Shown in pieces: positions 19,649-57,199 of a DNA stretch of 64,000 nt. Under the pieces are notes generated by a model. The model had not been told where the DNA came from. It saw nothing but the letters and a program-made list of their open reading frames with translations, and made no database searches. The DNA comes from Psammoneis japonica (taxonomy: Eukaryota). The stretch is from assembly GCA_008632985.1 (NCBI GenBank), contig QPGO01000029.1, forward strand, positions 446,874 through 510,873. The letters are read 5' to 3'. A program made the translations under genes and the position numbers. The first letter of the stretch is position 1. Every line of letters starts with the position of its first letter.

Positions 19649-20521
19649 TTTGTTTCAGTCACAAGTTTGTCATGTGACTGGTTGACATCCACAACCAGTG
19701 ATCTTTTTGGAAGTGTTGCTTGTTTGCATCCACAAAAAAGAGCCCTCTAAACTGCTGCTGCATGGAGAAGAGGACGACAAAGCAACCAGCCACAGTTCCT
19801 TGTCCACATGGAGCAACATTTTCAGAACAAGAGTCCTCCTTGGGCTCGGGCTGACTTCACTGTCAAGCCACCAATTTAAGCTCTGCAAAGTCATCCACAC
19901 TGGTTGTGTTTGTCATGACACTGCCAAAGTGACTTCCAATGTGGCCAGTGTGTCATTTGCGGTTCTTGCATCCACAGAAACACATTCAGAACAAGTGCTC
20001 CTTGGCCTCCAGCCAACTCCACCGTCATGCCACCACATTGAGAACTGCTGAGTCTTCCACACTGCATGCCGACATCACAATGCTGCCAAGGATGCTTCAA
20101 ATGGGGTCAATGCATTGTCACTGTTCCAACACCGACCATTGCATGTCATGTTGATGGGTCCAACGGCATCTTTTCATGTCAAAACAAAACCCCTGGCACT
20201 CGGTCACGACCGGCCATTGTCTTCAACCAATTGTCAGCAATGTTCTAAAACTCCATGGTGAGGGAGATGTGATGCGGCAAGGTCATGTCAGAGTGCAAAC
20301 AATGCCATTGCATGTCATCACCATTGTGAGCGCCGCATGCACGGTGGGTTGCCGTGCAAATTTGAATGAGCTGGTGGGCCCAACTGCCATTTCAGTGCAA
20401 TTGTGCACAGAAACTTGTGTGTGCAGATCCACACAACTTTGCACTGGCATGCCAAAAATGAACTGGGCAAGCTGTCCATTGTTTCATCGTCCACCTCACT
20501 GAAGTCTGCTCTGGCTGCTGG

Positions 20522-22323: not shown

Positions 22324-23699
22324 TCTGTGAGACTGGAGTGGGGCCTCATTGGTTGGTTGGTCGTTGGTCTTGTGATTTTTGCCCGGTCATGCCGGTCATC
22401 CATCTCTTGGGTGACACATCTGGACAGAATCTGTTGAAGAACACTCTGTCCTCCAGGGTCCATTTGGTTCTAAAAGGGTCTAAAATGGGGATGTTGAAAA
22501 TGGAACACAGATGTCCACAAAACACAGCTTTTTTGAACGCTTTTGTTGCAGTGGGAAACAACAGAGTCTCTTTTCTTTTTTTTCTCTTTTCTTCTCTCTT
22601 CTTTCCTTTTCTTTCCTTTTTCTCCTCTTCTTTCCCTTTTCAGTCTAAAATGCGCTCCAGTGACATGACAAAAACCGTCCATTTGAGGTGCTTTGTAGCA
22701 GGTGCAGCTCTCACATTGCACAGGCAAACAACACGCAGTCTGTCCTGCGTTCATTTCCAATCCCCAGCGCACTGATTGACAGACAGAATTGGTTCCTCCT
22801 CTTTCAGGTGGAACTCTCTAGATCGAAGTCTGAAACCAAAAGATTTTGGATTGCCGCCCTCGCCACTGTCAGAAAACAGAGCCATGACGATTGCCTGCAC
22901 CAATCATTTTGCTGCATTTTGCGCCGGGCGTTCGAACAATTGCAACACATGACGGTTGTTTCGGTGCACACTTTTGCGCGACCCACGCGACATGACCAAC
23001 ATGCGTCAGTGCGTGGTGCTGGTTGTTTTGCTTCTGACCGTTCTGTCTTCTGTGAGGTTTCATGAGGCTGTCTGTGTGCATTGATGTTGTCCAGTTGTGC
23101 GTGTTGATGTTGTCCAAGGCAAGCTGCGTTGGATTAAGTGAGTGTGGAAATGTACGAAATTTGCGCATTGTTGCAGTTTCTTTGCCAAATGGTTGGTCCT
23201 CATTTGTGGCCACACTCAATCCGCGGCGGCTCAAGTGAAAGTCCATGTGTGTGTGTTTTGCGCAGACGCGTTCCAGGTCTAGGTGGGACCTCGCACTACT
23301 GAACTGTGACATCGACAGTTTTTTGAGTCTCGTCGTATGTCGCGCACGTAGATTTCTACGTGATTTTTTCGACATTTTGTGTCATTTTACGGTACACTTA
23401 TTGAGCGATCCGTCCAACAACTTTTGACATTTTTTGTTACAGCGCGATTCTACAATGTCTTAAGAATCGCGTAGGGCAGGCGAAGTTGCAAAAACGTCGA
23501 GTGGTAAGAGGCATAATTGTACCACAAACTTGGCCGTTTATTTGATGTTGAAGATAAACATATCCATTAATTAAATTCTCGTACTACGGAGCTCGCACGT
23601 AGAATTCTACGGGCCCAATGTCACACGGAGTCCCACCTAGGGCTGGAACGCGTCCGCATTGATGCGGTTGTCTTTGCCAAATGGTTGTTTGTAATTTGC

Positions 23700-24170
23700 T
23701 CAATTCCATTCTTTCTGGCCACACTTCTTCTGAAGGGACTTTGCTTGCTCCTTCTCCTGCTCCGCCATCTCCTCCTCGGTGAAAAATCTCCCCGACCGCT
23801 GTGGAATCGCCGCTGCACATGCTGCCTTTAGCTCCTCCATGGTTGAACCATCCTTGGGCACGACCGTTGTTTCCACATGATGACTGTCCACTGTCGTGTT
23901 GTCTTGCACAAGTACAGAAGTGACATCAAAATTTCCCGAAGCAAGGTCAAACGCCGCTCTTGCTTCTTCCAAGGCAATCTCCTCTTCGTCTTCCTCACTC
24001 ATCAATGACTGAAGAAGTTCCGCATGTGTCTGCACCTTTTTCTTGTCCTCACCAGTTTTCTTTGGCTCGTCTGCCTTCTTTGTTTGTTGTTGCAAATCCA
24101 TGTTTTCTCTGTTGCTGCGTTTTCTGTGACGGTTGCGTTCGCGTTTCTTGGTTTGTTGGTTAAAATCCAT
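23700..24170 (-). CDS. Small charged hypothetical protein inside the Helitron block
   Basis: 156-aa ATG-initiated K/E/Q-rich ORF, no motif recognised. Confidence 0.35.
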   Translation of the reverse strand: MDFNQQTKKRERNRHRKRSNRENMDLQQQTKKADEPKKTGEDKKKVQTHAELLQSLMSEEDEEEIALEEARAAFDLASGNFDVTSVLVQDNTTVDSHHVETTVVPKDGSTMEELKAACAAAIPQRSGRFFTEEEMAEQEKEQAKSLQKKCGQKEWN

Positions 24171-24235
24171 TCGACGTTGTGTGGCGCATGTGCAGATTTC
24201 TGCGCAATGTGCTGATCTAATCGAAATGTTTTGTT

Positions 24236-27200
24236 TTACGAAATTTCCGCATTTTCACGGTTGGGGTCGCCAAATGGTTGTGCAGTGGTTGAGCATCCTA
24301 GTCCAATGTTTGCACACCACATCAACATTTCTGCGCACTGTTGCTGAGAAAAATGCGTGGCGCTTCTCTCCTTCATGAGTCTTGCCAAGGCTTCGCAGCC
24401 TTCTGGGACCTTGCATTTTCGCAGCTCCTTGCTCAGTGGCTTTCGCATGAACAGCCCTTCTCTGGTCTTTACTCTGGAGAGCACAACATGCACCCAATTC
24501 TGAGTGCAGCTCCAAGAGTGTGCAAACAACTGCGGGACTCCACTCCCTTGCAGTTTGTGCCCTGCAGTGGCATTGTTGATGACAAACGGCAGCTGGGTTG
24601 CCTTCAGTTGGAAAGTGTGCCTTTGTTTGTCGCCTTCTTCTAAAATTGGGCTGGGCTTGGCGATGCAAGCCCTGAAAGCATTTGTTTTTGGCTCAACTAA
24701 AAACTTCGCGGGGTCGATGCTTTTGTTGCAGTGTTCCAGTGCAACGTGGTCTGCCTGGCCAGCAAGTGCAGCAGGAATGCCAATGTTGTTGTCTAAAGTC
24801 ACCAGTCTTGGTTCCTGTCCTGGTTTGAGAACGACCTTGTCAACAGTGGCTTGCGTTCTGTTTGCTTGACCGTTTGCTGCATTTTCGTTGAAAGGTGTCA
24901 TGACTCTGCATCTTCTGCAAATTCGTAAGACTGGATCCATTCTTCCTGATTGCATGACAATGTCTCCTTCACCACAGTTGTTCCAGAAGCTGTTGCAAAC
25001 TGGAAATGGTTGGCAGAGTCTCGTGCCATTCTGCACCTGCAAGTCGTCACTGAAAATCAACATTGAGTCAAGGACGTCTCCATCTCTTCCATGCAGTGTC
25101 TCCACTCTTTTTTCAAACAGGCCAGTGTCAATTGCATCTCTGTCCTTATTTGCGTGCGTGGCACAGCGGAGGTCACTGGGCAGATCATCTTCGTTCTGAA
25201 CTGCTCGTTCGTTGATGTGCTCTATGTCGTCAACTGCAATCTCACCAGTGCGGAATCTCTCAAGCAGTTTTCCCCATGATGGATCGTCTTTAAACCTGTG
25301 TATACCACGAAGTTCTATGCAGCAGTTGATCCACTCGTGAAACTCGGGACACACATCTTTGTACAGTGGTTTCACTCCTTTTCCGACTGGTTCTAGTTGC
25401 CTGAGGTCACCTGCGAAAACAATGTTCACACCACCGTGCGGCTTGCTTGATTCGCTCTTCAATGCTGTTAAATTCTCATGGAGTTTTTCTAGTTCTCTCT
25501 TGCTTGCAAAAGAAATCTCGTCTACCACCAAAAGTCTCGTGTCTGACCATGCTTCAATTTGCTCTTCGGCCATTTGCTTTCTTCTCATGAGGCATGCAAC
25601 TCGGTGGATTGTGTCCCCTTTGAGAACAGTCACAGCCACTCCGGTCAGTGCAGTCACTCTGATTGTGCTTGTTGTGAACGGCTGCTCAATGAGCGAGCAG
25701 TGCTCTCTTCCGTGTTCCACGACGAGGTCCATTGTGGTTGATTTGCCACTTCCACCTGCACCATGTAAAAAACACACAAGTTGCAATGTTCTGCGTCTTT
25801 GCACTTCCATGAGTTTCTTCAATCGGTGAAGGTTTGTTGCGAACTCGTGTCTGCCATTTCTCCTGTTGAGTCCATTGCGTGACGTCTCATCTTGAAGAGT
25901 GTCTTGGCAGTGAGTGAGCACAAAGGTTCCTGCTAGAATTTCAAAGGCACGCTGCTGTTGCCCATCCAGTCTTGCTTTCCTGGCCCAGTCTATGATGCTT
26001 GCTGCAGATCCGTTTGCTTGACGTACATCGACGTGTTCTTCCAAACCTGTTGTGTCCTCAAACGACCTTCTTGTTCTTTGCGTTCTAGTTAGTGTCACTT
26101 GAACAATGTCGTCTCTTGACAGTGGTCTGCTGTGGATGTGTTGTTGCACTCCTTCATTCTGGTCTTCCTCGTCGGTGTCATCGCCGCCCTCTAGATTCTC
26201 AAAAAGTTGTCGTTCATCAACCTGGCTTTCCTCATTTGGTGGGTCAGTGTGCATGTCTGCCAAGCATTTGCAACCACCCATGTGTGAACCTTTCTGTCTT
26301 GCACGTTTGCCACTCAAATGCGCAGGAACAACTGCTTGGTCGCTCAACCCAATGTCATCGTCTTCTGGCTGCTCTGCCATTTCTTCCAAGAGTGCATCCA
26401 GTGGTTGACCCTGAATGGCGCCTGAAAGACCTTCTTCCTCATCACTTTCGCAACAGTCAAACGCAACGTCAGCAGGTCTAAATTGCTCCGTCTTTCTTTG
26501 CAGATCTTCAGATGCACTTTTGAGACGAAGGCAGTTGGACTCAGCATCCTGCAGGTTCTGCAAGAAGTTCAAGTTTTCCTCTGTGACAACACCGGCTGCT
26601 GCGGAGAGTTGGAATTCAAGCAGGCATGTGTGGGCCATTGGCTTGAGTTCCGTCATTGTTCTGCAAGGCGCAAACAAGGCCAATGCCAACTTGCAGCACA
26701 ATTCTTTGTCCAGTGTTGTTGGTTGCTGCGGATCTACAAGGCAACTGCCAAACTTGGCTGCATCAGGAAAATCACACTGAAGTGCTTTTGACAATCGCGG
26801 TTGCTGTCGCTGTCTGACACCTTGAAGAAACTTGTTCTTCATTGAATTGTGAGACGGGTGCCTGTGTGCTCTGTTGTCGAACATCATCATGCCGTGTTCG
26901 TTTTTCCTTGTGTTGCAAAGAACTTCGCACTCACTAAAAAATGCAAACGGACTGAGATTCTCCAGTGCTGTTGGATGACATGGGCAGTGCAAGGCCTGGC
27001 ATTGGAAGAATGGTGCATCGCCAAAATGGGCTACAGTCGCAGACACTTCGTCTCTTTCTAGTGTGCTGACAATGTCTTTCAAGGGGCACCATGCGGTCAA
27101 ATGAGATTCGATGAAACGGCTTCCGTTCCTTGTTGTGTAAGATGCAAGTGGTGGTCCAATGATGTTCGTCTTGTTGTGCAAGCAAGCACCCCATGTGAGA

Positions 27201-27274
27201 CGTCTGATTGCTTCCGATGCATCAGATGCATGTTTCCGTAATTCCGTCGCCATCCTGTTCGTAGTTCGAAGCAC
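24236..27274 (-). pseudogene. Helitron PIF1-family helicase region (hypermutated)
   Basis: LHGAGGSGKST (Walker A), LLVVDEISF (Walker B), GGVNIVFAGDLRQLEPV, HRFKDDPSWGKLLERFR, GHKLQG and WVHVVLSRVKT. Only ~2 Tyr in 1012 aa. Confidence 0.92.
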
Positions 27275-27280
27275 TTCGTC

Positions 27281-29516
27281 TTACGATGCAGTGTCATCTT
27301 TCTGGGCATCTTTTAGGATGTGCTCAATCGTGCATTGAGCAGACGGTCCAGGCATCAACAAAGCAATGTTTGTGTTGCATGTCAGCTTTGATCTGCTTGT
27401 TGCAGGGCACGACACGTTTTGAAAAGCATCGCACTTTCTCCTCTTCGGAACAACTTCCTTCACGCACCGATGCGCAAAAGTTCCATCCCAGCTGAACCAC
27501 TTTATCTGAGTGTCATCTGCATTCCTTGCCAAATTGTTTGGACACGAAGCAGCTGGTTGCCTGTGACGGCAGTCACCTGGTTTGAGCTCCTCTCGTTTCC
27601 TTTTCCTTGACAGCGCGTCCAGTTCCTCGTGTGGGGTTTTTTTGCGCATTTTACGTAACTCCACGCATTTGGGAAAACACGACTTCGTAACGTGCATGTG
27701 ATGGTTGTAAGCTGCGTCCGGTGTGTGTGCCTCTGTTGTCCCTTGCGGACCACTTCGCTGGTGTTGCACACACATTGCTTTTAGTCACTTTGCATGGTTG
27801 TCTGGACAGCGAGTCAGGCCAGGTGCACGGTGCCGTGACTGTAAAAAGCTTTCTACAAACTCGACGTTTGTCCAGCACTTGGTGCAGTGACGACAACAAG
27901 CAAACATTCCGTTCTTCGACTGCTGGCTGTCTTTGTGCCTCAGGTTTCTTGGCTGTTGGTCGTCTGCCACTTTTGGAGAGGTGCGACACATTTTTGGTGC
28001 TGTGCAGTCATGATCGAATGCTTCACGCAACGCGTTAGTGCTGAAGTCCTCGCTGCAGATTAATTCCGTGCTGCAGATCTTCTGAACTGTGTTGGCAAGG
28101 TGCTCAGCACCTTCGCATCGGATCTGTCTCATTGGCAAATGCAGTTTCTCTCTTGCATTGTTGATCGATGCGAACCAGATCTGCATGTGTCCGTGTGCTG
28201 TTGGACGTCCCTGCTCCTCAACTGCGGCTAAAAATGCGGCTGGCCTGCCAATGCAGAAGTTAAAGTTTTCTCTTGGTTGGTCAGTGCTCAGATCCCAACC
28301 CACTGCCTCTTCTGTTGCAATGTCAAACAAGCACTCGAATGCAAAGGCTGTTAGACCGGGAAACTTTAGACGCAGTTCATTACGTTGCTTGGCCCTGCCA
28401 GCAAGAATTTTGTCCATCAGTTGTGTCACGTCTTCGTTTGGGTCCAGGATGACACCCGAGTGCAGTTGCACAAGAAATGAATTTGCATCGTCTGGACTGA
28501 CGGTTAAGAAAATGCCACCCTGACCAAAATGATGCTGACAAGTTTTGGCATTTCTCCTCATTTTCTTTGCTGCTTCGTCACTGTGTGGCAGAGACGCAGA
28601 CACAACGTCGAGTGCACGCAAAAAGTGGTGCCCGAGTCCACAATCTCTTCTCTCGCCCAAGTTGCGATCACAAACAGCTCCATCCACATCGTCCACTGTT
28701 GGTTCGTTTGCAAACTGTGCAGCCTGATTCTTGTCCCTGACTTTCCACCCTGCGCTCTGTGGCATCCTTTGCTTCATTGTCAAGTTGCAGCACATTAACA
28801 CGAAGAGCTGCTCGTGGAAGTGAGGCTGGGAAATCCGTGCCAAGTGGTCGGCACAGTGTGCAAGGTTGGCGCCATCTGCAAGACTTCCATCTTTCTTCAT
28901 TCTCGTCTCATTGATTCCTCCTCTGCCAAAAGGAAACTGCAGCAGACACGCATCAATGAAGTTGTTGCCTTTGAAATCACTCGCAGATTCTTCAGACAAC
29001 TGTGCTTGCACCTCTAAATCAAATCCGTTGGCAGCAGCTTCGTGTGCAAGATCTTTGAAGCAGTCCAGGTTGCGCTGACCACCGGTCGCAGGAGACATGG
29101 TTCCATCAGGAAAGCAAACATGAAATGACTCTGAGGTCTCAACATTCGTGTTTTCTCCTTCTTCTTCGCTGGTGCCATCGACAAGCATGGGATTCCGCAG
29201 ATTGCGCCCAACTTCGTCCAGATTTGTCTGTTGGTGCACCCACTCTTGGTTGTGGTGCAACAGCCATTCCATCACCCTTGGCATGCAGTGCGTCCTAATT
29301 CTGTTCTTTGAACGCGCAAGTTGTCTTTGCTCCGGAGTCATCTTTCCAGTCATCAGCGCAATCACACTCTGATGTAAATTCAGTGCGTCGAAGTGCACAA
29401 CAGTTCTTACGATGCTTTGCATCTTGACTTTGCAGTGTGTCAGACTTCCCTGAAGCTTCTTCTGTTTGCCGCCAAGGCAACTGAAGCAGTGTCCGCATGT
29501 TTTCACTGGTGTGAGC
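27281..29516 (-). pseudogene. Helitron Rep (HUH/Y2 endonuclease) region (hypermutated)
   Basis: LQFPFGRGG, HFGQGGIFLTVSPDD, VEEQGRPTAHGHMQIW (HUH motif) and HMHVTKSCF. The expected YxxxYxxK motif reads CTIEHILK. No Tyr seen in the 573-aa ORF. Confidence 0.88.
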
Positions 29517-29792
29517 TGACAGGATTTGAACAGGATTTAGGTGCGCGCGAAGCATCGCGCGCTGTTTAGTTTACCGTGCACAGTTTTGTGTGCTTTAGTT
29601 CCGCGCGTTCACGCGCGATGTAGTTTGCTTTCGAGCCACAAGGCTCACAAGAATGACAACAGTGGCCCGATTGTACCGACTCACACGTCTTTCGGCTCCT
29701 GTGACGGTCTCTGAGCGGAGACTCATCTGCTATTTAGACAGCAGTAAGGAGTCATTGTTTGAATTCTTGCCATTTGCCTTCATTTTCTGTCA
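29517..29792 (+). repeat. 5' LTR
   Basis: Direct repeat of 36351-36626, with TG...CA ends and a 6-bp terminal inverted repeat. Confidence 0.97.
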
Positions 29793-30732
29793 GATTAACA
29801 GTCTTGCTCATTGTCAACCCATTGAGCAACCGCCATCGTCGTCGTTGATTTACCAACGACGCTATTTTTAATTCTACGTGGACCTCCGTATATATTCTAC
29901 ATACATCGGCAAGTCTACGCGCATTCAATACCAGGGCATCGGCAGGAAGTTAACGTCACCGTCAAGTCTCCTTACCGCTGGATATCTGGATCGATTATAC
30001 TACCTTTGATCGCTGAAGACATACATTCAACGGTCATATCCAAGTCTATCCTTGATCCTCATCCCTTGATATACCTATTCATCGGTTAACGGTCAAGAAC
30101 CCTACATATTCAAGGATCTTCGTCGCTGAAGACATGTGTATATATACATGTCTTCACGGCCAAGAACCTGTACCCACTCTTCGGACTGCGGTTTTGCTGC
30201 CACTCTACAAGCACACCGAGTCCATTGTGCCTGATCTACCCCGGACTGCTGGTGCTCTACAGTTCCACTGGGTCCACGAGGATGACTGTGAGAGCAAGCA
30301 GCCGTGATTGCAGCCTGCGTTGGGGCGAGGGTGCTTTCCCGCGTTTGTTCGTTCGTCCACAGCGCCCAACGCCTGCGTCAACTGGCCAGCCTGATTGGGA
30401 AATCCAACCGACACAAAATAAGAACGGTTCGGGGGTCTTGTCCACCTCTGGTCAGCTTGCCTGCAGGGGTTTGCAACCCGCTGCTCCGCTCGCAAGCAAC
30501 CCAAAGCGCCGCCAGCTGCGGGTTCGGACGTGCCGGCACAACTCTACGGACCGGATGGGAAGTTTAGCACTTGACAACGAACGGGACAACAAAGCCCGGC
30601 GACTTCTGATTTTAAGACAGTTCAAGATTTCAAGTCAAGTCTGTTTCAAGTCAAGTCTGTTCTCACCCAAGTTTCGAGTCTGCCTTCGCTTCCCAACCAG
30701 AATTGATTGTCCTGACACCATTTTTGTCTGCC

Positions 30733-33700
30733 ATGGTTCTCACTCGTCAGCAACAAACCGATGGTTTTGAGCACGTGGTTGGAACCGTGCTTGCCCAAGG
30801 TGCTGGGAGTCCTCTTCGTTTGGCTTTGGCCCAAGACGGCACGGACTCATGTCAGGAACCATTCACGTTTTCACACCGTCCCAAATCGACTCGCTTGAGT
30901 GCGACAACGGCACCAATGCAATCCCTTTGCCCGGTGGTCATAAGAACATGTTAGCAGCACCCAGTCAGTCTGTGCATTGTTAAAGCACACAAAGGTCTTG
31001 ACGTTGCCAACGACTCCTCTTTGTTCACGCATGACGAGTTCCTTGCCTGCCGCCTCAGCCCCGACTGCATGTCTTCTGTGTCCATCGGCAGCTCACCCCT
31101 TGCACCTCCACATGTCACCAACCCGACCAAGGCACGCGACCCGGTGCGGGACTTCAAGCGAGGCATCAAGCGTGATCCCACCGCTTTCACGGCTCTCAAA
31201 TCCGACAAGCAGTGGCACACTTGGCACACCTCACTTGTGGCACAAGCCCGTGCCCAAGACGTCGAGTGCATTCTAGACTCGTCGTACAAACCGACCAGCC
31301 CCGAAGACAAACTGCTCTTTGCTGAACAGCAAAAGCACATGTTCGCCGTCTTCGAACGCATCCTTCTCACCGACAAGGGCAAGGCTCTCATTCACGAAAA
31401 TGTGGGGTCTTCTGACGCACAGACCGTCCACCGCTCCTTGTCTGAGTGCGCGCTTGCCTCCACCCGCGCATCTGTCGAGTCCTCCACCCTGCTCACGTGC
31501 CTCGCCACCGCGCGTCTTGGTGATGGCACTTGGAAAGGTCCGACCCACGGGTTCATCCTTCATTGGCAAGATCAGTTGCGCAAGTGCGAGGCACTCATCC
31601 CGGCCAGTGACCACTTCTCTGAAGGACAGAAGCGCGTCATGCTCGAGAATGCCGTGCACCCTGTCGAGGAACTCCGTGCTGTCAAGAACCAAGCTGATCA
31701 GCATCGCACGCAGAGTGGCAAGAGCCTCACATGCGATCAACACTGTGGCTTGCTCCTCTCCGCGGCAGCTCAGTGCGACAGCACGTTTCAACCCAAGACG
31801 ACACCTCGAGCTCCCCGACGCGCCACACACGCACACGACGTCCACTCCGAGGAACCGTCCGACGATGTGTTCTGCGACATTGACAGCGACGTTGACGTCC
31901 TTCAAGCCAATGCTGCCCACACCCGCGGTCCCAGCCTCACCGGTGTCCAATGGAGACGTCTCCCTCCCGACCACCAACGGCTCTGGGATTCGTTGCCCGA
32001 TTCCTCCAAGGCGATCATCCTTGAGCATTCTCGTCCACCTCCCCGCAACCCGCGAGCCAGCAACTGCCATGAGTCTGTTACGGCCAACCTTCACGACCAA
32101 CGCCTTGGGAGTGACGGTGATGTCAACTTGTCCAACACGACTCCTGCGGACTCTGGTGACTCCGCCCCACATGTGGATGCCACTTCGGATGATCCCATCC
32201 TGGCGCACCTCACCAAGCGCAAGCCACTGCCACCCGGTGATCTGCAACGTCTGTTGTCTCCTAACCAAGCCCCCAACGCCAGTCGACCGGGGCCATCCGC
32301 CGCTTCCTCTACCCCGCCAGCTTCCGCAGATAACACAGAACTTAACGGCCGCACTTGCCGCCGCGTTGACAACCACAATGTCATTTGCTCTGCCTCTGCT
32401 CATCGATCCACACGCACTGGCGCTCTAGTCGATCGTGGGGCCAACGGCGGCATTGCTGGCGACGACGTTCGCGTCATTGCACGCACCTCTCGCCAAGTCG
32501 ACGTTCAGGGCATTGACGATCATCAATTGGTGGACATCCCCATTGTCACCGCTGGTGCCGTCATTGAGACCCAGCGTGGTCCCGTCATCGCCATCCTCCA
32601 TCAGTGCGCACACACGGGAAAGGGCAAGACCATCCATTCCTGCGGCCAGCTCGAATGGTGCAAACAGGATGTCAACGATCGCTCTGTCAAGGTGCCCAAC
32701 GGCTTGCAACGCATTGCCACTCCTGATGGCTATGTCATCCCCATTGACATCAAGGCTGGCCTGCCTTGTGTTGCCATGCGACCTTGCACTGACGCCGAAT
32801 GGGACACCCTGCCCCATGTCATCCTCACCGGTGATGACACATGGGACCCTTCCGTCCTCGATCACTCTGTCACTGATGACGACCAGTGGTGCGACGCGAT
32901 CTCTGACCTGCAGGACGATCCCACTGCCAACCTGTTTGACGAATGCGGCAACTGCCGTCATCGTGTCGTTGTCAACGAGACCATCTTGTCCGCTTCCTTG
33001 TCTGCCGATCACGCGTCCGCCCTCGATGATCACCTCATTCCGAACGACGACGTGTTCTGCGAGTGTCATCTGCATGCGATTGGCCCCCAGGGCGATGACG
33101 TTCCACCTCCGGAGCGCACTGTACAGCCCAAGGACCCCCCCTTCGAGTCTCTTCGGCCTTGCTTTGGCTTCCTACCTGCCGATGCGGTCCGTCGTACTTT
33201 TGACTGCACCACGCAGTGCGCCCGCATGCCCGCCGGCACACACCTTCGCAAGGCCCACAAATCACCCAACCCCGCCCTTAATGTGCACCGCCGCAACGAG
33301 CCTGTCGCCACTGACACCGTTTGTGCCGACACCCCGGCCGTCGACTCTGGTTGCACCAGCGCCCAACTGTTTGTTGGCACCGAGTCTACCGTCACTGACG
33401 TCTGCGGCACTAAGACGGACAAAGAGTTTGTCAACACACTCGAGGATCAGATCCGTGCACGTGGTGCCCCATCCAAACTCATTGGCGACCGTGCTCAAGT
33501 TGAGATCAGCAACAAAGTGCTCGGGATCCTGCGCGCCCTCTTCATCTCTAGCTGGCAAAGTGAGCCTCACCAGCAACACCAAAACTTTGCCGAGCGTCGA
33601 CACCAGACCGTGAAGCGCATGGCGAACACTGTCATGGATCGTTTTGGTTCGCCCGCCCACACATGGCTGCTGGCGCTCATGTGCGTGTGCTTCATGCTCA

Positions 33701-36350
33701 ACCATGCAGCGTCCCCACGTCTCCACTGGCGCACGCCCCTCGAGACTCTCACTGGCTCCACCCTGGACATCAGCCCATTGCTTCGCTTTCACTGGTGGGA
33801 ACCCGTGTGCTTCCACCTCGATGACTCCGATTGGCCATCTGAATCCCGTGAGTTGCGTGGACGCTTCGTTGGCATTGCTGAGCACGTCGGCCACCAGATG
33901 ACCTTCAAGATTCTATCTGACGAGACTCAGAAGATCCTCTGCCGGTCCAACGTCCGCTCCGCTACCCCCGATCCTGCTGTTCGAAACCTGCGTCTTGATC
34001 CTCCTGATGGGGAGCCACCTGAACCCATCATCAAATCTCGCCATGACGACAACCCCGTCGACTCTCCTGATGGGGAGATCAGGACACCCAAGATGCCAGT
34101 TTTCGATCCGCAAGACATCATTGGACGCACCTTCCTCATGCAGCCACAAGAGGACGGACAACGCCACAGAGCTCGCATCGTCAAGGCCGTCGAAGACCAC
34201 GAATGGAAAGTGAACGGCAATCCCGAGCTCACTAAGTTCGTCTGCTCTGTCAACAATGACGAATACGAGGAAGTCCTTGCCTGCAATGACATCATGAATC
34301 ACATTGAGCAAGAAGACGAAGACACCACTGTTTGGAAATTTCGACGCATCGTGTCACACGAAGGACCTCTGAAGCCTCACGACCCAACCTGGAAAGGCTC
34401 CAGCTACAACATCATGCTTGAATGGGAAAGTGGGGAGATCACGTCCGAGCCTCTTGCCATCATCGCCAAGGACGACCCCGTCACCTGTGCCATCTATGCA
34501 CGAGAGAACGGACTCCTCGACACGGATGGCTGGAAGCGGTTCCGCACCATCGCGAGGCACCAAAAGAAGCTGTTTCGCATGGCCAACCAAGCCAAGCTTC
34601 GCTCCTTCCGCACTGCACCCCGCTACAAGCATGGACACGAAGTTCCCCGGAACTGCAAACACGCCATGTCACTAGACGAACGCAACGGCAACCACAAGTG
34701 GGGAGACGCAACCAATCTCGAGATGGACCAACTCGACGAATACGAAGTCTTCCATGACTGCGGGCCCTTCAAGTCTTCCACTCCTCCTGCGGGACACAAG
34801 AAGATCCGAGTGCACCCAGTGTACGATGTGAAACACGACGGTCGCCACAAGGCACAACTCGTAGCCGACGGGCACCTCACGGACGCACCTGTCGACAGTG
34901 TCTACTCCGGAGTAGTCTCCCTCCGTGGCCTTCGGCTGATGATTTTCCTGGCCGAACTCAACGAGTTGGAGACATGGGCCACCGACATTGGCAATGCCTG
35001 CCTTGAAGCCACCACCAAGGAGAAGCTTTACATTGCAGCTGGGCCCGAGTTCGGCAAACTCGAAGGGCACATCCTTGTCATCCACAAGGCACTGTATGGA
35101 CTGCGCAGCTCCGGTCTCCGCTGGCACGAGCGCTTCGCCGACTGCCTGCGAGCTGAAGGCTTCTTCCCCTGCCGTGCCGAACCCGACATTTGGATGCGCA
35201 GGAACGGCGACCACTGTGAGTGCATTGCCGTTTATGTGGATGACCTCGCCATTGCCATGAAGGACCCTCAATCTTTCGTCGACACTCTCACGGAAAAGCA
35301 CAAGTTCAAGCTCAAGGGTGCAGGACCCATTGAGTTCCATCTGGGTTGCGACTTTTCCCGGGAACCCGACGGAACCTTGTGCCTGTCTCCGCGCAAGTAC
35401 ATCGAGCGCATGGTCGACAGCTGTGCCCGACTGTTTGGGGAGAAACCTGCCACCAACGCCCTGTCACCTCTAGAGAAGGGTGACCACCCCGAACTGGACA
35501 CTTCCGAACTGCTGGGACCCGATGGCATTCACAAGTTCCAGTCTCTTGTTGGTTCACTCCAATGGGCAGTGTCCCTTGGTCGAATTGACATTGCCACGGC
35601 CGTCATGTCACTCTCTAGCTTCCGAGCTGCGCCCCGTCAAGGCCACTTGGATCGTGCCAAACGCGTCTGTGGGCACCTCTCCAAGATGCGACACGGTGCT
35701 CTCCGCGTTCGCACGGAAGAGCCCGACTGTTCGGATCTCCCTGCTCCGGCCCATGAATGGATGCATTCCGTGTGTGGTGAAGCAGAAGAGATGATCCCGA
35801 AGGACGCTCCACCGCCCTTGGCAAGTTCGTCACTGCCACCCACTACGTCGATGCAAACTTGCACCATTGCATGCTCACCGGACGCTCTGTCATGGGAATG
35901 CTCCACTTCCTCAACAAATTCCCGGCTGATTGGTTCTCTAAGAAACAAGCCACCACAGAGACTGCGACCTGCGGGTCTGAATTTGTTGCCGCAAGGACTT
36001 GTGTTGAGCAGATTGTCGACCTGCGCATCACCCTGCGCGCCTTGGCGTCCCGATCCGTAACGTTAGTTACATGTTCGGTGACAACAAGTCGGTTGTAGAC
36101 AGTGCCACCATCCCGCACTCCAAGTTACACAAGCGACACACCGCACTGTCGTTCCACCGTGTGCGTGAGGCAATTGCCTCTGGCCACCTTGAGTTCCACT
36201 TCATCGAAGGCTCCCGCAACCCTGCTGACATTCTCAGCAAGCATTGGGGTTGCTCCCAAATCTGGGACCTTCTCCGCCCCCTCATGTTCTGGAACTTCAT
36301 TCCATCCGAAGTCGAATCTGTTTCTGTGGCTCCTCAAGCAAACTGGGGAG
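30733..36350 (+). pseudogene. Copia gag-pol polyprotein (frameshifted near 30850-31020, ~35820 and ~36050)
   Basis: Protease ALVDRGANGG. Integrase VATDTV..LIGDRAQVE..QNFAERR. RT WATDIGNA, KALYGLRSSG and YVDDL. RNase H KKQATTETATCGSEF, MFGDNKSVV and NPADILSKHW. Confidence 0.95.
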
Positions 36351-36626
36351 TGACAGGATTTGAACAGGATTCAGGTGCGCGCGAAGTGTCGCGCGCTGTT
36401 TAGTTTACCGTGCACAGTTTTGTGTGCTTTAGTTCCGCGCGTTCACGCGCGATGTAGTTTGCTTTCGAGCCACAAGGCTCACAAGAATGACAACAGCAGC
36501 CCGATTGTGCCGACTTGCACGTCTTTCGGCTCCTGTGACGGTCTCTGAGCGGAGACTCATCTGCTGTTTAGACAGCAGTGAGGAGTTGTTGTTTGAATTC
36601 TTGCCATTTGCCTTCATTTTCTGTCA
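36351..36626 (+). repeat. 3' LTR
   Basis: Direct repeat of 29517-29792, preceded by the PPT. Confidence 0.97.
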
Positions 36627-37083
36627 TGAGCATTGCCAACTCTGCTTTGGTTAGAGACAACAGTTTGTGCGGTGGGGTGCCGAAACAGTGGTTGTTCGCT
36701 GTCGCATGCATTGGCGTGACGGCTCTTCCCAGGCTTCTTCGGCATTCGCTGCAGCAAGTGAATCCATCGACGTGTCGTCTGTCTTCCTGCACTGCGCATT
36801 GGGCACGGGGAGAAAGCAGCAGGTCTTTGATCCAATCAGCATCTTCATGCTCTACAGCGCAGCAGGACTTGAGACGATCAGATGCGCTGTTCCAGTCTGA
36901 AGGGGTGAGCAAGTTTCTTGCTGATTCCAATGTTTCGAGCGGCAAGCAGCAAACTTCTCCAGGTTTCAGCAGAACGTCACAGACTGAACATGCGTGTGGT
37001 CTAAATTCTCCATCTCCATGCAGACAAACCATCTCAAACTTTCCATTGATTGCACTGCAAACACGGGAGTCGGCCTCGTCCAT
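36627..37083 (-). pseudogene. N-terminal part of the Helitron Rep ORF, split off by the copia insertion
   Basis: CSVCD...CCSECRRSL..PMHATANNHCFGTPPHKLLSLTKAELAML joins in frame, across the TSD, to TPVKTCGHCFSCLGG at ~29511. Confidence 0.85.
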
Positions 37084-37179
37084 TTTGATTTAAGCTGACA
37101 CTTTGACTCAACAAATTTCAAGAAGTCACTCAGCAAAAACAGTTGTTTTTTCAGTGCGATCACCGTGAAGCTGCGATCG

Positions 37180-37850
37180 GTGCCATCCAATCACCACAGC
37201 GATGTGTGTTTTCTCACCACCTGCAGCACTGCGACTGGTGTCGTCCAGTCACCGCAGTGGTTCTGTCCAGTTGATCAACGAACCGCATCGGTGCCACCCG
37301 TTCACCACAGCACTGTGTCATCTTCTCACAACCTGTGCAATCAGGTCACTGTGAGTGCTGCGACTGGTGCTGTCCAGTCACCGCAGCCGAGTTAATTGGT
37401 TGCTTGACGAACTGCGTCGGTGCCACCCGATCACCGCAGCATTGTGTCGTGTTCTCACAACCTGTGCGATCAGGTCTCTGTGAGAGCTGCAACTGGTGTC
37501 ATCCAGTCACCGCAGCTGAGCTTGTGCATCATCTCACAACCTGCGTTACGAGGTGCAGCGCTGTGTTGTTTGCTCACAACCTGTGCAATCAGGTCGCTGT
37601 GAGAGCTGTGACTGGTGTCGTCCAGTCACCGCAGCCAAGTGAATTGGTTGCTTGACGAACTGCGTCGGTGCCATCCGATCACCGCAGCGTTGTGTCGTGT
37701 TCTCACAACCTGTGCGATCAGGTCTCTGTGAGAGCTGCGACTGGTGTTGTCCAGTCACCGCAGCTGAGCTTGTGCGTCATCTCACAACCTGCGTTGCCAG
37801 GTCACTGTGAGAACTGAGAACTGCGATCGGTGTGGCCCAATCACCGCAGT
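37180..37850. repeat. Minisatellite-like tandem array (~120-130-bp subunits, ~248-bp higher-order unit)
   Basis: ctcacaacctgtgc.atcaggtc.ctgtgag.gctg..actggtg...tccagtcaccgcagc recurs at ~37325, 37454, 37573 and 37701, plus partial copies. Confidence 0.9.
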
Positions 37851-38006
37851 TGGATGCTTTTCGTTTCCCTTTGCGCAAAGGTTCTGTCACAAAAAAGTGA
37901 GACGAAAGTGTGCCTCTTTCACCTCGACGGAAGAGTGACGTGTGCGTTCCTCCCACGTCCTTCTTCATGCCAGACGCATGACGTCCCACTTAGTTTCGTT
38001 GACGTT

Positions 38007-38107
38007 GAACATCCCATGGGATGAGATTTGGATCTTGTTCAAGTTGTTTCGACCATCTGCTCTGAACATTCCATGGGGTGAGATTCGGATCTTGTTCAAG
38101 TTGTTTC
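38007..38107 (+). repeat. ~45-bp direct repeat pair
   Basis: tgaacat.ccatggg.tgagatt.ggatcttgttcaagttgtttcg occurs at ~38007 and ~38063. Confidence 0.85.
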
Positions 38108-38654
38108 GGCAATCTTGGTGGTGGGCGCAGCTTTGCGCAAATTCCGTGGAATCACGCTTTAATGAGTGGCAGGGCAGTTGAGTTAGTCGTGTGGCAACAA
38201 CAATGCGATTGACGTCATTCGTGTTTCCAAAGTGCGCGCGAATCCTCCAAATGGGTGATGGGCCCACCTCAGCTAACTGTCGGCACAGTGTGCAGTGACA
38301 GCGATGGCGTCGACCGTTTGGCGACTAGATTTCGTGCACGATGGCCGCGCGGCAGTGACGGCTGAAATGCACACAAAGCACGGACGGAATTGCACGTGAT
38401 TTTACGCATTTTCAGCAAACTCAGTGCAACTTTGCGTGCTCCGATCCTTGCATCTGTTTTGTTCAAATTGAATCCATGCACCACTTGCAAGTGCTGACAC
38501 CTGGAAGGTTGCCTTGTTGCAGTTCGACGTGTTTGGATCTAGTTGCTGACATTGCCAGTTCTCCTTGGTGTGATGCACACAGCTCTGCTGGGTCTTTCTT
38601 GGCACTTCTGAACGATCGCACTTTTTGTTCCCACAATTTCTCTCCGACTGATTC

Positions 38655-39528
38655 GATGGCACGCAAAAGAAACACAACGACCTCCCCGGCTGCGAAAGCC
38701 AAAGTCGCCAAAACCAAACAGAAGAAGGCAAAGACGAAGTTTTCTGATGCTCTGTTGAAGAAGCTAAGTCTGCCCCGCAAGACCAACGGCTTGACCGATG
38801 ACAACCTTAAACCGGAAGACTGCCTTGCCAAGCACGGGTTCAAGCTTTCCAAATCTGCCGGTTCTGACGATGGCAGCCATTCCGACAAGGACGCCCTCCT
38901 GCGCTGCACCACCGTCACTGTCGGCCGCAAGAAAGGCGTCGTTTTTCGTCTCCAAGCCAAGAATCCCCTTTCAACCAATGTTTGGTCGGAGAAGGTTCTG
39001 TTTGATGACCTTCGCAGCAGGACTCCGTGGGCGGTTCAAGTCGGATTCCACCCTTGCACTGGCAGGTGGGTTCACGAAGGCGAGTTGCAGACGAACGCCA
39101 AGAACTGCGCCGTGCGTCTCTTCTTCATCTTCCTCGAAGAAGTCCCAACCGATGCTAAAGCAAGCGGCCTCGGGAAGCACATTGCGAAGCAGCTCAACGA
39201 TGACCCTGAGAACAACACCAAGGTCTTCGTTGAAGACGACTTCTTCTGGATGAAGGATGCTGTTTGGTCCGAAGTGATCGGCAATGAGGCGGCGCTTGCC
39301 GAGCTTCAGAAGGAAGGTGGTCAGCTTCACATCGGTTGGTGTGCCCAAAACAAGAACTTGCTTCACAGTCACTTCTACGAGGGGTCGTTGCCTGTGGAAC
39401 TCTGTCGTCTCATTGGAGCTCCGGTGGAAGAAGCTGGAGAAGAGGCCGACGATGATGTCGAGCTCAACTGCGAAGTTGACCTGAACGTCGATGACGACTT
39501 GGTGCTTCAGGACAGCGACGAAGACTGA
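38655..39528 (+). CDS. Hypothetical protein (basic N-terminus, acidic C-terminus), putative Helitron cargo
   Basis: Coherent ORF from MARKRNTTT with gene-like codon use; Tyr nearly absent; no family recognised. Confidence 0.6.
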
Positions 39529-39751
39529 GTTGTTTTTTTTTTTTGCCGGTGCAGTGTAAATTTGCAAATGTTTGGTGAACTGAGTGTCGATTGCAACTCA
39601 GCTTTCCTCTGTCTCTTCAAGCATGTGCCATCTCCGATGACAACTTTACGTTACCGCGAAGCAATGGCGAATTGAGTGGAGCAACTGGCGTGTGACGTCT
39701 AGCACAGTGACAGCAAAAAAACAGTTCAGTTGAGTTCTTAAGCAAAATTGG

Positions 39752-40552
39752 CTATTTCGCGATGGGTGAATGCTTCCGTTCCAAGTGTGTCGGAGTGGGA
39801 CGTCGCATGTGCTGGCTGGTTGACTGAGAAGTCTCCTCTTTCTTGGTGCACTTGTGGAAGACGAGATGTTTCACGTCTCCGCTGTGCCACAAAAAGTCGC
39901 CATCATGGTGATCCGCCGTGAAGGACTCGCACATCCACTCTCCCGCGTACGACGCGAACAGCGGATCTAGCGCCACCACCACGGTCCCAGCACGACACAA
40001 CTTCGAAAGCATCGCCTCTGCCTTCTGCAGTGTGTTCTTGTCGTCGACCATGCGGGAGTTGCAGTTGTTGAAGAACACCTTGAGTCCTTTCTTTTTCCAC
40101 AAAGGAGCCAGCCTCTCATCCAAGAATGACTTGTTGATCAACTCTAACCCGCCGTTCGAGCAAAGGCCAGCACGATGAGCCCAACGTACAGCCTCTTGGT
40201 GACGATCGTGGTCGGCCTCGATGCTCACCACGGTGCAACGGCGACGAAGTAACTTGAGCCCGATGCTGGGTCCGGCAACTCCCCCACCCATGTCGACAGA
40301 TGCATCGCAGGTGTGATTCACGCCAAGAAGGCGTTCGTTCAAAAACACTTCGCTGCTCAAAGCGAAGCCAACTTCGCCGCCGTGCGAAGATCCGCTTCCG
40401 TCTCCGGAGACACGCCTGCTCTGGAACGCGGAGTCCGGAGCCGTTTGAAGACAAAACTCCCCAACACTTCTGTGACGATGGTTCATCGCATCCAACCTTG
40501 TGGCAACATCAACCTTGCTTGCAGCGGGTTCGACCAGATGTCGCGTTTCCAA
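39752..40552 (-). pseudogene. SAM-dependent methyltransferase, DOT1-like (hypermutated)
   Basis: SHGGEVG (cf. DOT1 YGE), VDMGGGVAG (motif I), VVSIEAD (motif II), VFFNNC (cf. DOT1 xxxNNF) and RAGTVVVALDPL (cf. GxxIVS). Confidence 0.6.
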
Positions 40553-40933
40553 ACCAAACTGTGACGTGCGCAGAATGTGTAAAATTACCGTCGCGCCCTC
40601 TACGCACGCGAAATTTTCAAACGCGGCGTGCTGCCTCTACCTGCGCATGGAGCGACGTACAAAGTCATTTTAAACAGACATGCAGACGCGTTGAAATGAC
40701 AAGACGCCTTTGGGCGGTAAAACATGTTTTGAATCTCGGCCTGCTTCTCATCGCCACTGCACTTGTGTGTCCGTGTAATTCAAACGCACGAGCTGGCACG
40801 GCACGCAACACACTTCTACGTGAGAACTCGCACTGAGATTGCCGTGGGATGATCCTCCCTCTGCGGAGACAAAAACAACGCGACAACACTTCCGTCATTG
40901 TGTTTTGAAACACATTTCAAATTGAGACACACC

Positions 40934-42367
40934 ATGTCGCAACTGCCTCGTGCCTCGCTGCATCGTCCCACCAATGACAAGCACTTGTCGCGATCGAGCT
41001 ACAGCCGGTCTCGACAGTGTGGGGGTTTGGGACGTGCAGCTCGCAGCCCGACAACAAGCAAATGCTTCTCGCGATTAGGTTTCGACCCCACTCCCCTGGA
41101 GTCCGCCGGTCCCTGTCAACAGAGTTTTGCTTTGGGTGCTCTTGAGGCAACGGAAAGCAGACACATCTCTCGATTGGGTTTTGACCCCACTCCCCTGGAG
41201 TCCGCCGGTCCCTGTCAACAGAGTTCTGCTTTGGGCACTGTTGAGACGACAGCGACAGTGTCAAGCAGCGGAACATTTGCCGGCAAGTTCGCACACACGT
41301 TCTCTGCAAACACCGCATCATCAATGCGCACCAGGACACACGAGAATGTGTTGAGGGCTCAACCGCCACTTCGTAAGGCCCACCGCAGCCGCAGGCGAAT
41401 CCGCAGCCGCGCCAGTGGGAAAACATCCAAGATCACTCGCCTCGTTCCACTCGCACCGTGCGCCACCAAGAGTCTCTCCGTACACTGCGTAGCCAACCGC
41501 ACTCTAGTTTATGACGGCGACTGCACTCAGCCTGCACCACCTTGTCTTGCTGACATTGACTTTGCCGAATTGGCTCCTCTGGTCGTCTGTGACCCTGTGC
41601 TCGATCTGAAGCCTTTCTTTGGCTTGGACGGTTGCCGCTGCGACAACACCTGCACCCTGCTGCCGCGTTCTGCTGTGGTGTTCAGCTCCCCCAACCCAGC
41701 AGAACCAGTTGCTCAGTGCCGAGCGCTCGAAGCACTAGAATCCTGCACCGCCCAGTCCACCGTGCGCAGCAAACAACGCGTTACCTTCATGGAGATGGAC
41801 AGGAGCAAGTGTTCCACGATTGGCCTGGCTGCCACAAGGGATGCTCAAATTTCTTGCAAGCAGCCTGGCACAGCCGACCAACACACTCACCACCTCACCA
41901 GACTTCTTTCACACATGGAGCACCTTGTCAATGAGTGCGTGGACCATGCCATCCTTGAGGGTGTCGCTCGTGTCAAAAAGTTTCACAACTGGAAATCCCT
42001 GGTGCAGTCAGATGGCATTTTCTCCTCTCTGGCGGCTGGGCGCAATGTCTTCCTCAACGCCCATCGGGGCCAGGACTTCTTCCTGTCAGCAGTCACCGTG
42101 GTGGGAGTCCCTCCGTCCAGCAGCTGCACCATGAATGACGGGATTGTGGCACACTTCTGCTTCCCCACCGAAGGCATCTCCGTTGCACTCCGGCTTGGTG
42201 ATGTCATCATTTTTAACCCCACCAAGTGCCACTGCATCTCCAGCAGGACAAACTCAAACGACGAGTTCTTCTGCATGTCTCTCCACCTGAAGAGTGCTGC
42301 AGTGGGCAAGAACAACAATTCAATCCCCCTTTCTCTAGAGGAAGAGACCATTCTCAGGCGACTGTGA
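40934..42367 (+). pseudogene. 2OG-Fe(II) dioxygenase, TET/JBP-like (hypermutated)
   Basis: C-terminal FSSLAAGRNVFLNAHRGQDFF (degenerate HxD), FCFPTEGISVALRLGDVIIFNPTKCHCISSR (distal His) and MSLHLK. The true start is uncertain. Confidence 0.6.
41066..41236 (+). repeat. ~70-bp direct repeat pair
   Basis: cgatt.ggttt.gaccccactcccctggagtccgccggtccctgtcaacagagtt.tgctttggg occurs twice; differences include TA vs TG and TG vs CA. Confidence 0.9.
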
Positions 42368-42589
42368 CAGCACAAAATAACTTGCTAAATTTGTGTAAAT
42401 TTACTGACTTTCTGTACTCAGGCGACTGTGCAGGTGCCTGCTAATTTGCTAGATTTGCGCAAATTTACCGACTTTCTGTTCTTCCTCGTTCCCATTTTTC
42501 GAACCACAACTGGGGCTACGCCTTTCCAACTAATGCTGCAGTTTCGCTGAAAAACACCAACACACTGTGCTGCTAATTTAGAGAGCACA

Positions 42590-43228
42590 CTACACGGCAA
42601 ACGTTTTGCCAGACGTAGAGCTTCTCCCCCCTGACTTGGGGAGTAGACGCGATTTCTTCTTCCAATTCATGGCACCCGACGTCGCCTTCCTCTTCTTCTT
42701 CTTCTTCTCCGATTCATCCAAGTTGCATCTGCAGAGAAATTCCTCCCCGGGCATGATTCGCTTCGTGACTGCCAAGCACCCGTCGTTGTAGAACTCGCAG
42801 TTGTTGTCCGCGTGTTGGCTTGCCTTGATCTTCTTCTTGTCCTTGAACGACTCGGTGGCATCGTTCACGCAGTGCATTCCGAGGTAGAGTGGATGGGAAT
42901 TCTTGTTCCCTGGACCACTAAAATCAAGCGGTTTTGGCTCCACTGTGATGCAGTGGCCCTCGCTGTCATGGATGGTGGAGCAGCACACGCTGTGGTCTTC
43001 TCCAAACTTGCTGTCGTGGTCGTACCACCAGCAGCTCCTCGTCGCACCGGGCACCCTGGGGCCCACGTAGATTCCAACCGTGCTGCCTTTCTGGAACTGG
43101 CACAAAGCAAAAAAACCAATGCCTGCGCCCCTCCATTGCGATGCGCGCAGCTCGCCCACCTCCACCTCCTTGGGGCCTGCGGAGCGAACGGACTTTTCGA
43201 GGCAAAACAACGCAGGTTGAAGTGACAC
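42590..43228 (-). pseudogene. SET-domain lysine methyltransferase (hypermutated)
   Basis: RASQWRGAGIGFFALCQFQKGSTVGIYVG (SET-N GxGxFA..I.EYxG), MHCVND (cf. RxxNH) and VTKRIMPGEEFLCRC (cf. RDI.xGEEL..DY, with the terminal Tyr replaced by Cys). Confidence 0.85.
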
Positions 43229-43234
43229 GGCGCC

Positions 43235-57190: not shown

Positions 57191-57199
57191 GGCCACTGC

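Follow-up and report, generated by a model that had tools for sequence, protein, structure and literature searches.

The 64,000-nucleotide stretch of contig QPGO01000029.1 from the Psammoneis japonica assembly analysed here (the window) carries a Ty1/copia retrotransposon whose two long terminal repeats (LTRs) differ only at sites that fit an ancestral TpA, and this pattern very probably reflects a very fast, context-specific mutation of TpA to TpG or CpA in DNA integrated into transposon islands, a reading that concerns the process and not the enzyme behind it. At the level of the sequence, the comparisons below establish a context limited to TpA, an A:T>G:C direction, a timing after integration, an action on both strands, a restriction to domains, an excess in rate, and a self-limitation at each site.

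Pairwise alignment of the two LTRs (29517-29792 against 36351-36626) yields 276 ungapped columns with 12 mismatched bases, all of them transitions, which form eight dinucleotide differences, one of them TA/CA, three TA/TG, and four CA/TG (Table 1), with precisely the coordinates and states listed in the original prediction, which had been made from the letters of this stretch. The remaining pyrimidine-purine (YpR) steps are identical between the LTRs (20 CG/CG, 5 TA/TA, 18 CA/CA, and 21 TG/TG), and the absence of indels and of any CG difference that had also been claimed is confirmed. All 12 differences fall at TpA-derived sites, with none at the 20 CpGs and none at the 250 positions other than those sites. 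The presence of TGAGC on both flanks indicates a single insertion rather than a product of recombination between two elements. Changes between TA and CA or TG represent 21-22% of the transitions possible on the LTRs, giving P ~6e-6 for eight of eight events. For comparison, flanking direct repeats were sought in 80 related loci, 17 of which have one, and the LTR pairs from other hosts with at least 90% identity and at least eight differences were compared (n=5: L001, L017, L043, L047, and L052); L009 and L062, which at 65% and 78% identity are not credible as LTRs, were left out, as were L018, a tandem duplication of 8 kb, and nine further pairs with 0-2 differences. In these five pairs, 11 of 74 events are TA/CA, TA/TG, or CA/TG and the others are CpG changes, transversions, or transitions of other kinds; here the count is 8/8 (Fisher p = 1.9e-6, computed with a denominator of 75, the mismatched bases, rather than 74). 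Taken with the P value above, this comparison indicates that the pattern is not due to chance.

When an LTR element replicates, both LTRs of the new copy are templated by one sequence, which places the 12 changes after integration, or at least after the last reverse transcription; together with the intact target-site duplication, this upholds the proposal that they arose in the chromosome after insertion. Both TpG and CpA outcomes are seen, without strand runs, in agreement with the proposed action on both strands. The absence of change at the 250 LTR positions outside the 13 TA-derived sites sets a 95% upper bound of ~0.006 per base per copy, and the fitted TpA loss corresponds to ~0.4 hits per base per copy; the excess at TpA within the LTRs is at least ~70-fold over other bases and at least ~10-fold over CpG (0/20 sites changed), so that the claim of a rate far above background also stands. 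The LTR divergence, conventionally 4.3%, becomes zero once TpA sites are excluded, and LTR dating fails because all of this divergence is hypermutation, as the original prediction had warned.

The direction of change that had been proposed, from an ancestral TA, is supported by the fit of the site pattern, by outgroup codons, by other copies of the family, and by composition, all of which favour TA over CG or CA/TG as the likely starting state of the LTR sites. Under an independent-hit model, a TA origin entails five sites unchanged, four changed once, and four changed differently in both copies (best P ~8e-3), the fitted mutated fractions being 0.40 (5' LTR) and 0.67 (3' LTR), and a CG origin entails 20 CpGs untouched in both copies, none changed in one only, and eight changed in both (best P 4e-9); the TA origin fits about a million times better. 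Relative to 33 full-length relatives recovered from metagenome contigs, the element has 60 differences at 666 conserved codons, 16 of which are changes of Tyr to Cys (11) or His (5). Specifically, of 32 conserved Tyr (TAY) positions, 16 now read Cys (TGY) or His (CAY) and 11 still read Tyr, and Arg (CGN) is retained at 49/52 conserved positions, with one change to His and two to Gln. The reverse transcriptase (RT) domain, compared with 120 relatives of 59-72% identity, differs at 15/188 conserved columns, and 6 of its 11 Tyr columns now read Cys (TGC/TGT) or His (CAC). The long open reading frame (ORF; 31021-36060) contains 0.8% Tyr, 3.2% Cys, and 4.7% His. Its observed/expected ratio of TpA is 0.17, against 0.27 for the interior of the element and 0.29 for the element as a whole, and the element (0.27-0.29) lies below every one of 80 related loci (0.33-0.99).

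Other copies of the family add a view of the same sites. Public contigs of one sample hold 51-70% of the element's sampled words, and the 14,547 contig pieces that map to the element in the sequencing run X1 show a very abundant, high-copy family; the X1 sequences differ from the window copy by 319 transitions and 31 transversions. Among the difference rows listed for these copies there are 29 events, 28 of them at YpR steps: 18 are unlinked (11 with TA, six with CG, and one other, at the non-YpR step at 30721), and 11 are linked CA<>TG swaps, where unequal counts disclose TA as the extra state at seven and CG at one, the counts being equal at three. At 29664, within one of the four CA/TG sites of the LTR pair, 20 contigs have A with no matching T>C at 29663 among the rows listed, which points to TA in these copies; of the four sites at which family members had been expected to carry TA, this one gives such an indication. 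Moreover, a loose contig end at 36583 reads CA where the LTRs have TA and TG, and all three states therefore occur at one site, while 29869 and 30238 are mutated in other copies and still TA in the window copy, so that each copy has its own subset of hits. Searches of a protein collection returned no close family members, either with a 271-aa RT query (best 75% for a DNA locus and 73% for a protein) or with a 91-aa query aimed at short contigs (best 71%).

The element has the hallmarks of Ty1/copia, with 276-bp direct terminal repeats, TG...CA ends, and a 5-bp duplication. Its polyprotein is collinear with the 33 full-length relatives over ~1,700 residues at 44-61% identity and contains an RVT_2 match (E = 5.9e-27, Pfam scan; ~34786-35421), the only Pfam domain reported in it at E <= 0.001; an integrase upstream of the reverse transcriptase is implied by the collinearity with relatives rather than domain by domain. 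The reading frame of homology shifts near 35815 and near 36040 with respect to all full-length relatives, other family copies have an extra base at 35814 and at 36037-36039, and near-invariant Tyr residues of the RT domain are replaced. The frame changes make the copy defective despite its long open frame, and it is, judging by these lesions, functionally dead. The open frame persists because TA>CA/TG cannot make TAA or TAG and removes existing ones: TAA and TAG, counted on both strands, occur 6.3 and 7.7 times per kb in the element, 3.0 and 1.3 times at 57-64 kb, and 12-22 times in gene regions, and the frequency of TGA rises where those of TAA and TAG fall.

The depletion extends well beyond the copia element. 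Dinucleotide maps in 1-kb and 250-bp bins, with a strand-symmetrised CpA/TpG ratio, assign to the gene regions (1-19 kb and 44-56 kb) values of ~0.4-0.7 for TpA, ~0.9-1.2 for CpG, and ~1.0-1.3 for CpA/TpG, the flanking PIP5K, WD40, Myb, and pyridoxal-phosphate (PLP) decarboxylase genes having a TpA of ~0.5. At 1-kb resolution, TpA is mostly 0.04-0.24 and CpA/TpG 1.3-1.9 at 19-44 kb, and at 57-64 kb TpA is 0.01-0.08, CpG 0.04-0.12, and CpA/TpG 1.8-2.0. The depleted bins form runs at 19-23, 24-29, 31-44, and 56-64 kb (TpA 0.01-0.24, CpA/TpG 1.3-2.0), and the island edges are abrupt, at ~19.0, ~44.0, and ~56.2 kb at 250-bp resolution. The copia element interrupts a Helitron-like ORF on the minus strand (27785-29506), and the Helitron is more TpA-depleted than the element inside it, with 0.0% and 0.2% Tyr in its two ORFs; this deeper depletion fits a longer residence. 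Across the regions examined, stretches with a mild reduction of CpG, such as the copia element, already show a strong depletion of TpA, and CpG values of 0.04-0.12 are confined to 57-64 kb, the segment that has the lowest TpA as well. This order is read here as a fast, saturating TpA process, followed by a slower CpG decay, and the second island, from 57 kb, is to judge by its composition the end state of the TpA process plus CpG decay. Along the islands, CA and TG outcomes follow each other in random order (z = 0.0 for 57-64 kb and 0.26 for 19-23 kb), and the runs test detects no strand-coordinated tracts in four of five island segments.

Several other features lie in or between the islands. 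The inverted repeat at 20521-22323 has 24 CA/TG sites, three sites still with TA, and 26 CG/CA or CG/TG sites; its arms (20521-21277 and 21563-22323) measure ~760 nt each, share 82.5% identity, and stand 285 nt apart, a 60-nt tandem occupies 21361-21480 inside it, and the whole looks like the remnant of a foldback transposon. The 396-bp element at 23262-23657 resembles a miniature inverted-repeat transposable element (MITE), with 28-nt terminal inverted repeats that are 89% complementary, and has a normal TpA content (12-14 per 250 bp) amid almost TpA-free DNA; it is either a recent insertion or no target. To the right of the copia insertion, inside the island, tandem repeats with spacings of ~129 and 248 bp and 65-92% identity occupy 37171-37802, and several ORFs of 266-489 codons lie in the TpA-depleted DNA of 38476-44077. 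Neither of the two scanned (38476-39528 and 40898-42367) has a Pfam match, and these ORFs are probably artefacts of TAA/TAG loss and not genes, the islands having many long ORFs without a Pfam match because TAA and TAG are lost. Complex, non-satellite sequence fills the ~7 kb of 57001-64000, which include a (TTG)n/(CTG)n run near 59120-59180. Outside the islands, 12750-17793 holds two long ORFs (1221 and 376 aa), the second with a UvrD-like helicase C-terminal domain, and 12-14 kb has a strong A-over-T skew with normal TpA; this region was considered as a second Helitron and rejected, as it has no DNA- or protein-level similarity to 24236-29506. Scans for tRNA genes and Rfam families found none in the window.

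Table 1. Coordinates of the LTR sites that differ and of the features of the window (position 1 is the first letter of the window; paired positions and states are given as 5' LTR / 3' LTR).
Feature	Position	Strand	Description
Differing LTR site	29538 / 36372		TA / CA
Differing LTR site	29553 / 36387		CA / TG
Differing LTR site	29663 / 36497		TG / CA
Differing LTR site	29674 / 36508		TA / TG
Differing LTR site	29682 / 36516		CA / TG
Differing LTR site	29731 / 36565		TA / TG
Differing LTR site	29745 / 36579		TA / TG
Differing LTR site	29753 / 36587		CA / TG
5' LTR	29517..29792	+	276 bp, TG...CA ends; 9 TpA left; less mutated copy, estimated 40% of ancestral TpA lost
3' LTR	36351..36626	+	276 bp; 5 TpA left; mutated at 8/8 differing sites; estimated 67% of ancestral TpA lost
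Target-site duplication, left copy	29512..29516		5 bp, TGAGC
Target-site duplication, right copy	36627..36631		5 bp, TGAGC
Leader after 5' LTR	29750..30250	+	TA-rich, 34 TpA vs ~37 expected; least mutated part of the element
Ty1/copia polyprotein region	30700..36370	+	RVT_2; ORF 31021-36060; 1679-codon open frame
Purine-rich tract	36340..36350	+	resembles a polypurine tract; immediately precedes the 3' LTR; read from the sequence
First transposon island	19000..44000		TpA-depleted, CpA/TpG-enriched; CpG partly depleted (0.45-1.17)
Second island	56250..64000		runs past the window end
Helitron remnant	24236..29506	-	Helitron_like_N and PIF1-type helicase ORFs; TpA 0.11-0.24

Each of the other explanations considered accounts for some of these observations. 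If the eight sites had once been CpG, methylated cytosines deaminated on a single strand or on both would have left TG, CA, and TA, all reachable from CG by C>T, and traces of such decay exist: CpG-type differences are common in the window's older repeats (13 CA/CG and 13 CG/TG at 20521-22323), 6/29 events among the rows listed for the family copies are of this type, and the older islands are CpG-depleted. In the LTRs, however, the two copies agree at all 20 remaining CpGs, CG never stands in one copy alone, and the four TA-containing sites would require three hits each; the outgroups, moreover, have Tyr and not Arg at the Cys/His positions (16 changes of Tyr to Cys/His against three of Arg to His/Gln), and TpA depletion is left unexplained, all of which leaves a CpG origin barely credible. 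Repeat-induced point mutation (RIP) of the fungal type would run in the opposite direction, from an ancestral CpA/TpG by C>T to TpA, and TA/CA and TA/TG differences between repeat copies are its usual read-out. This reverse direction is ruled out by TpA being depleted (0.17-0.29 in the element and 0.01-0.24 in the islands) and not enriched, and it is also contradicted by the loss rather than gain of Tyr, by the lack of new TAA/TAG stops, both of which are rarer in the islands, and by the four CA/TG sites, which C>T alone cannot yield; RIP is the least credible of all the readings considered. An ADAR-like A-to-I editing of the element's RNA before reverse transcription, inherited by retrotransposition, would change A to G on either strand, preferentially after U, and some coding-region changes older than the insertion could have this source. 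It is extremely improbable as the general explanation, since edited RNA cannot make two LTRs differ that share one template, the signature also marks the Helitron, a DNA transposon, and unclassified DNA with domain-like edges, and the limit to TpA is strict (12/12, with 0 at ApA, CpA, and GpA).

Two further readings concern how the LTR differences came to be in the assembly or in the element. The high copy number of the family, the derivation of all runs containing it from one sample, and a sequencing technology that is not on record would suit an artefact, consisting either of base-calling errors at modified heterochromatin bases or of an assembly that mixes copies. A systematic error would not give different readings (CA, TG, or TA) in the two LTRs at sites surrounded by tens of identical bases, the matching target duplications favour one real insertion, the variant states recur in many separate contigs at high word depth, and the unrelated metagenome contig L039 has the same signature (8/11 Tyr to Cys/His, TpA 0.33); even if copies were mixed, the spectrum among them would be identical, and an artefact is given very little probability. 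Gene conversion would retain the same mutation process and import the LTR differences from differently mutated copies, for which the genome offers thousands of related pieces and which would suit the patchiness of the depletion along the element. Conversely, no conversion tract is visible, none of the eight sites has a non-TpA variant beside it, although the copies differ at CpG and elsewhere, and the eight sites extend over 216 bp interleaved with unchanged TpA, so that import by conversion is unlikely.

Mutation in place of the TpA sites of integrated DNA remains the preferred reading, and some observations weigh against it or narrow its base. It draws on one LTR pair from this host; a search for further LTR copies within the 64-kb window found none, and a degenerate LTR pattern had no match in metagenome contigs. 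The event-level family data comprise 40 listed difference rows of 359, and the third state at a linked pair is deduced on the presumption that the smaller count is nested in the larger. Moreover, the runs containing the element come from one sample of one study, possibly the source of the assembly, so that they do not serve as independent confirmation of the base calls. The depletion itself is patchy, the leader at 29750-30250 and the terminal-inverted-repeat element at 23262-23657 being almost untouched, and these spared patches mean that the process is patchy, or that it is episodic, or that the sequences are young. Lastly, 37-44 kb has fewer CA/TG runs than expected (z = -3.4), a deficit at 37001-44000 that could derive from the coding-strand bias of an element or from strand-biased hits.

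The protein-coding genes of the window bear on the host lineage, and the relatives of the element on the spread of the process. The named organisms among 120 listed homologues of the PIP5K ORF are all diatoms (Cyclophora, Cylindrotheca, Fistulifera, and a Bacillariaceae metagenome-assembled genome; ~38-43% identity), and the nearest Atlas cluster of the PLP-decarboxylase ORF is mostly Bacillariophyta; from these two genes, with their modest identities, the host is probably a diatom and not the chlorarachniophyte Bigelowiella natans, in which a similar process has been described. The genic TpA here is about half of the level given for B. natans in the accessible part of that report (bioRxiv 10.64898/2026.01.13.699255). 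At the 11 conserved Tyr positions of the RT domain, 78 of 80 related loci have 0-1 Cys/His. In one metagenome contig (L039, 2363 bp), which belongs to a different copia with 67% RT identity, 8/11 of these Tyr positions read as Cys/His, and its TpA (0.33) is the lowest of the 80 loci with a normal CpG (1.02). Similarly, 104 of 120 protein relatives have 0-1 Cys/His at conserved Tyr positions and a few have 4-8. The footprint in L039 suggests that the process also acts in another host, and it is probably not confined to one species.

In the proposed course of events, the copia element would have inserted once with identical LTRs and would since have lost ~40-67% of its TpA, the LTRs otherwise staying unchanged. 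Each palindromic TpA would be converted independently to TpG or CpA, by an A:T to G:C change on either strand, and once hit would no longer be a target; as TAA and TAG would never be created and existing ones would be removed, a dead element would keep a long open frame. A slower second process, from CpG to TpG/CpA, would act on the same domains, its simplest cause being the decay of methylated cytosine, and the oldest DNA would end almost without TpA and CpG. Because TpA is its own complement, the attacked base, A or T, is indistinguishable from the sequence. An enzymatic deamination of adenine after T in silenced chromatin, as proposed for B. natans, is the favoured candidate, with a likelihood somewhat below even, and the other options are mispairing with G of a modified thymine at TpA and the deamination of methylated adenine. 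The loss of CpG is more likely ordinary methyl-cytosine decay than a second activity of the same machinery. A bolder and rather doubtful proposal is that diatoms, and perhaps many protists of the stramenopile-alveolate-rhizarian (SAR) group, possess a dedicated DNA-editing defence aimed at chromatin domains, in which a single machinery, e.g., a deaminase acting on adenine and cytosine, would erase both TpA and CpG into CpA/TpG, in a RIP-like manner that keeps GC content and ORFs and is active in vegetative cells; if this were true, standard transposon dating and ORF-based annotation would be systematically wrong in such genomes.

More generally, the process would extend a discovery made in one chlorarachniophyte to an apparent diatom, and so to an ecologically important group, and from viral inserts to ordinary transposons, and L039 hints at a still wider distribution. 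The LTR pair provides a simple internal control that is usable on any assembled genome without experiment. In a transposon island, a long ORF is no evidence that an element is intact or active or that a gene is present, and the systematic replacement of Tyr by Cys or His makes homology searches less sensitive. Should an enzyme drive the process, it would be a naturally occurring, sequence-specific editor of DNA that makes A:T>G:C changes.

The closest known system is that of B. natans, for which the accessible text of Mettrop et al. 2026 (bioRxiv 10.64898/2026.01.13.699255) reports that two integrated regions, one of giant-virus and one of virophage origin, received 231 of 302 nuclear mutations in mutation-accumulation lines, that 230 of these 231 were A>G or T>C, all at TpA, and that the rate was ~6e-7 per site per generation, ~1000-fold over background, in some lines only. 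The same text proposes an ADAT2-like adenine deaminase and describes an enrichment of reverse-transcriptase and DDE-type domains among TpA-depleted coding sequences (bioRxiv 10.64898/2026.01.13.699255). A term search of its accessible part returns no mention of diatoms, LTRs, or retrotransposons (bioRxiv 10.64898/2026.01.13.699255), and a search of the full-text literature for TpA hypermutation found no diatom report, the B. natans preprint being the sole report returned; PMC4504042 came up through unrelated words only. As far as that part of the preprint describes it, the B. natans process shares with the present one the exclusive TpA>TpG and TpA>CpA changes, the extreme rate excess, the targeting of foreign or mobile DNA, and the long-term footprint of reduced TpA with raised CpA+TpG in clustered 1-kb windows, although the ratio used here is perhaps computed differently. 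Host genes are likewise spared here, with TpA ~0.5 against the depleted copia, Helitron, and unclassified island DNA. The two cases differ in that B. natans is a rhizarian and the present host appears to be a diatom, and hence a stramenopile; in that the evidence here is an LTR pair serving as internal clock, combined with outgroup polarity, in place of mutation-accumulation lines; and in that the targets are a high-copy copia family and a Helitron, whereas the giant-virus and virophage inserts, according to the same text, are single-copy. In addition, the depletion here (0.01-0.2) is far deeper than the TpA of 0.45 given there for the nucleocytoplasmic large DNA virus (NCLDV) region, and a near-total loss of CpG is also present in the oldest DNA.

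Fungal RIP changes C to T, mostly CpA to TpA, and yields AT-rich, stop-rich DNA. The present process resembles it as a defence-like burst of DNA transitions that is confined to transposons, specific to a context, and disabling for coding capacity, and is opposite to it in chemistry and direction, since GC content stays roughly the same, TpA disappears, and stop codons do not arise. The B. natans target is described as single-copy, in cells growing vegetatively (bioRxiv 10.64898/2026.01.13.699255, accessible part). Transposon methylation is documented in diatoms in the part of PMC9998398 that was accessible. Methyl-CpG decay accounts for the CG>TG/CA changes in older island parts and among family copies (CpG 0.04-0.6), whereas 0/20 LTR CpGs are changed and the depletion of TpA is unexplained by it. 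Animal APOBEC and ADAR enzymes edit nucleic acids that have yet to integrate, either RNA or single-stranded cDNA, and leave strand-coordinated clusters, ADAR preferring U before A. Their deaminase-driven hypermutation, a subject also taken up in the B. natans preprint, resembles the present case in being directed against mobile or viral nucleic acids and differs from it in that the changes here arise after integration, on both strands, and without strand runs. Overall, this kind of process has very recently been described elsewhere, and what is added here is a new host group, new targets, a demonstration by internal clock, and an end state marked by the loss of TpA and CpG alike.

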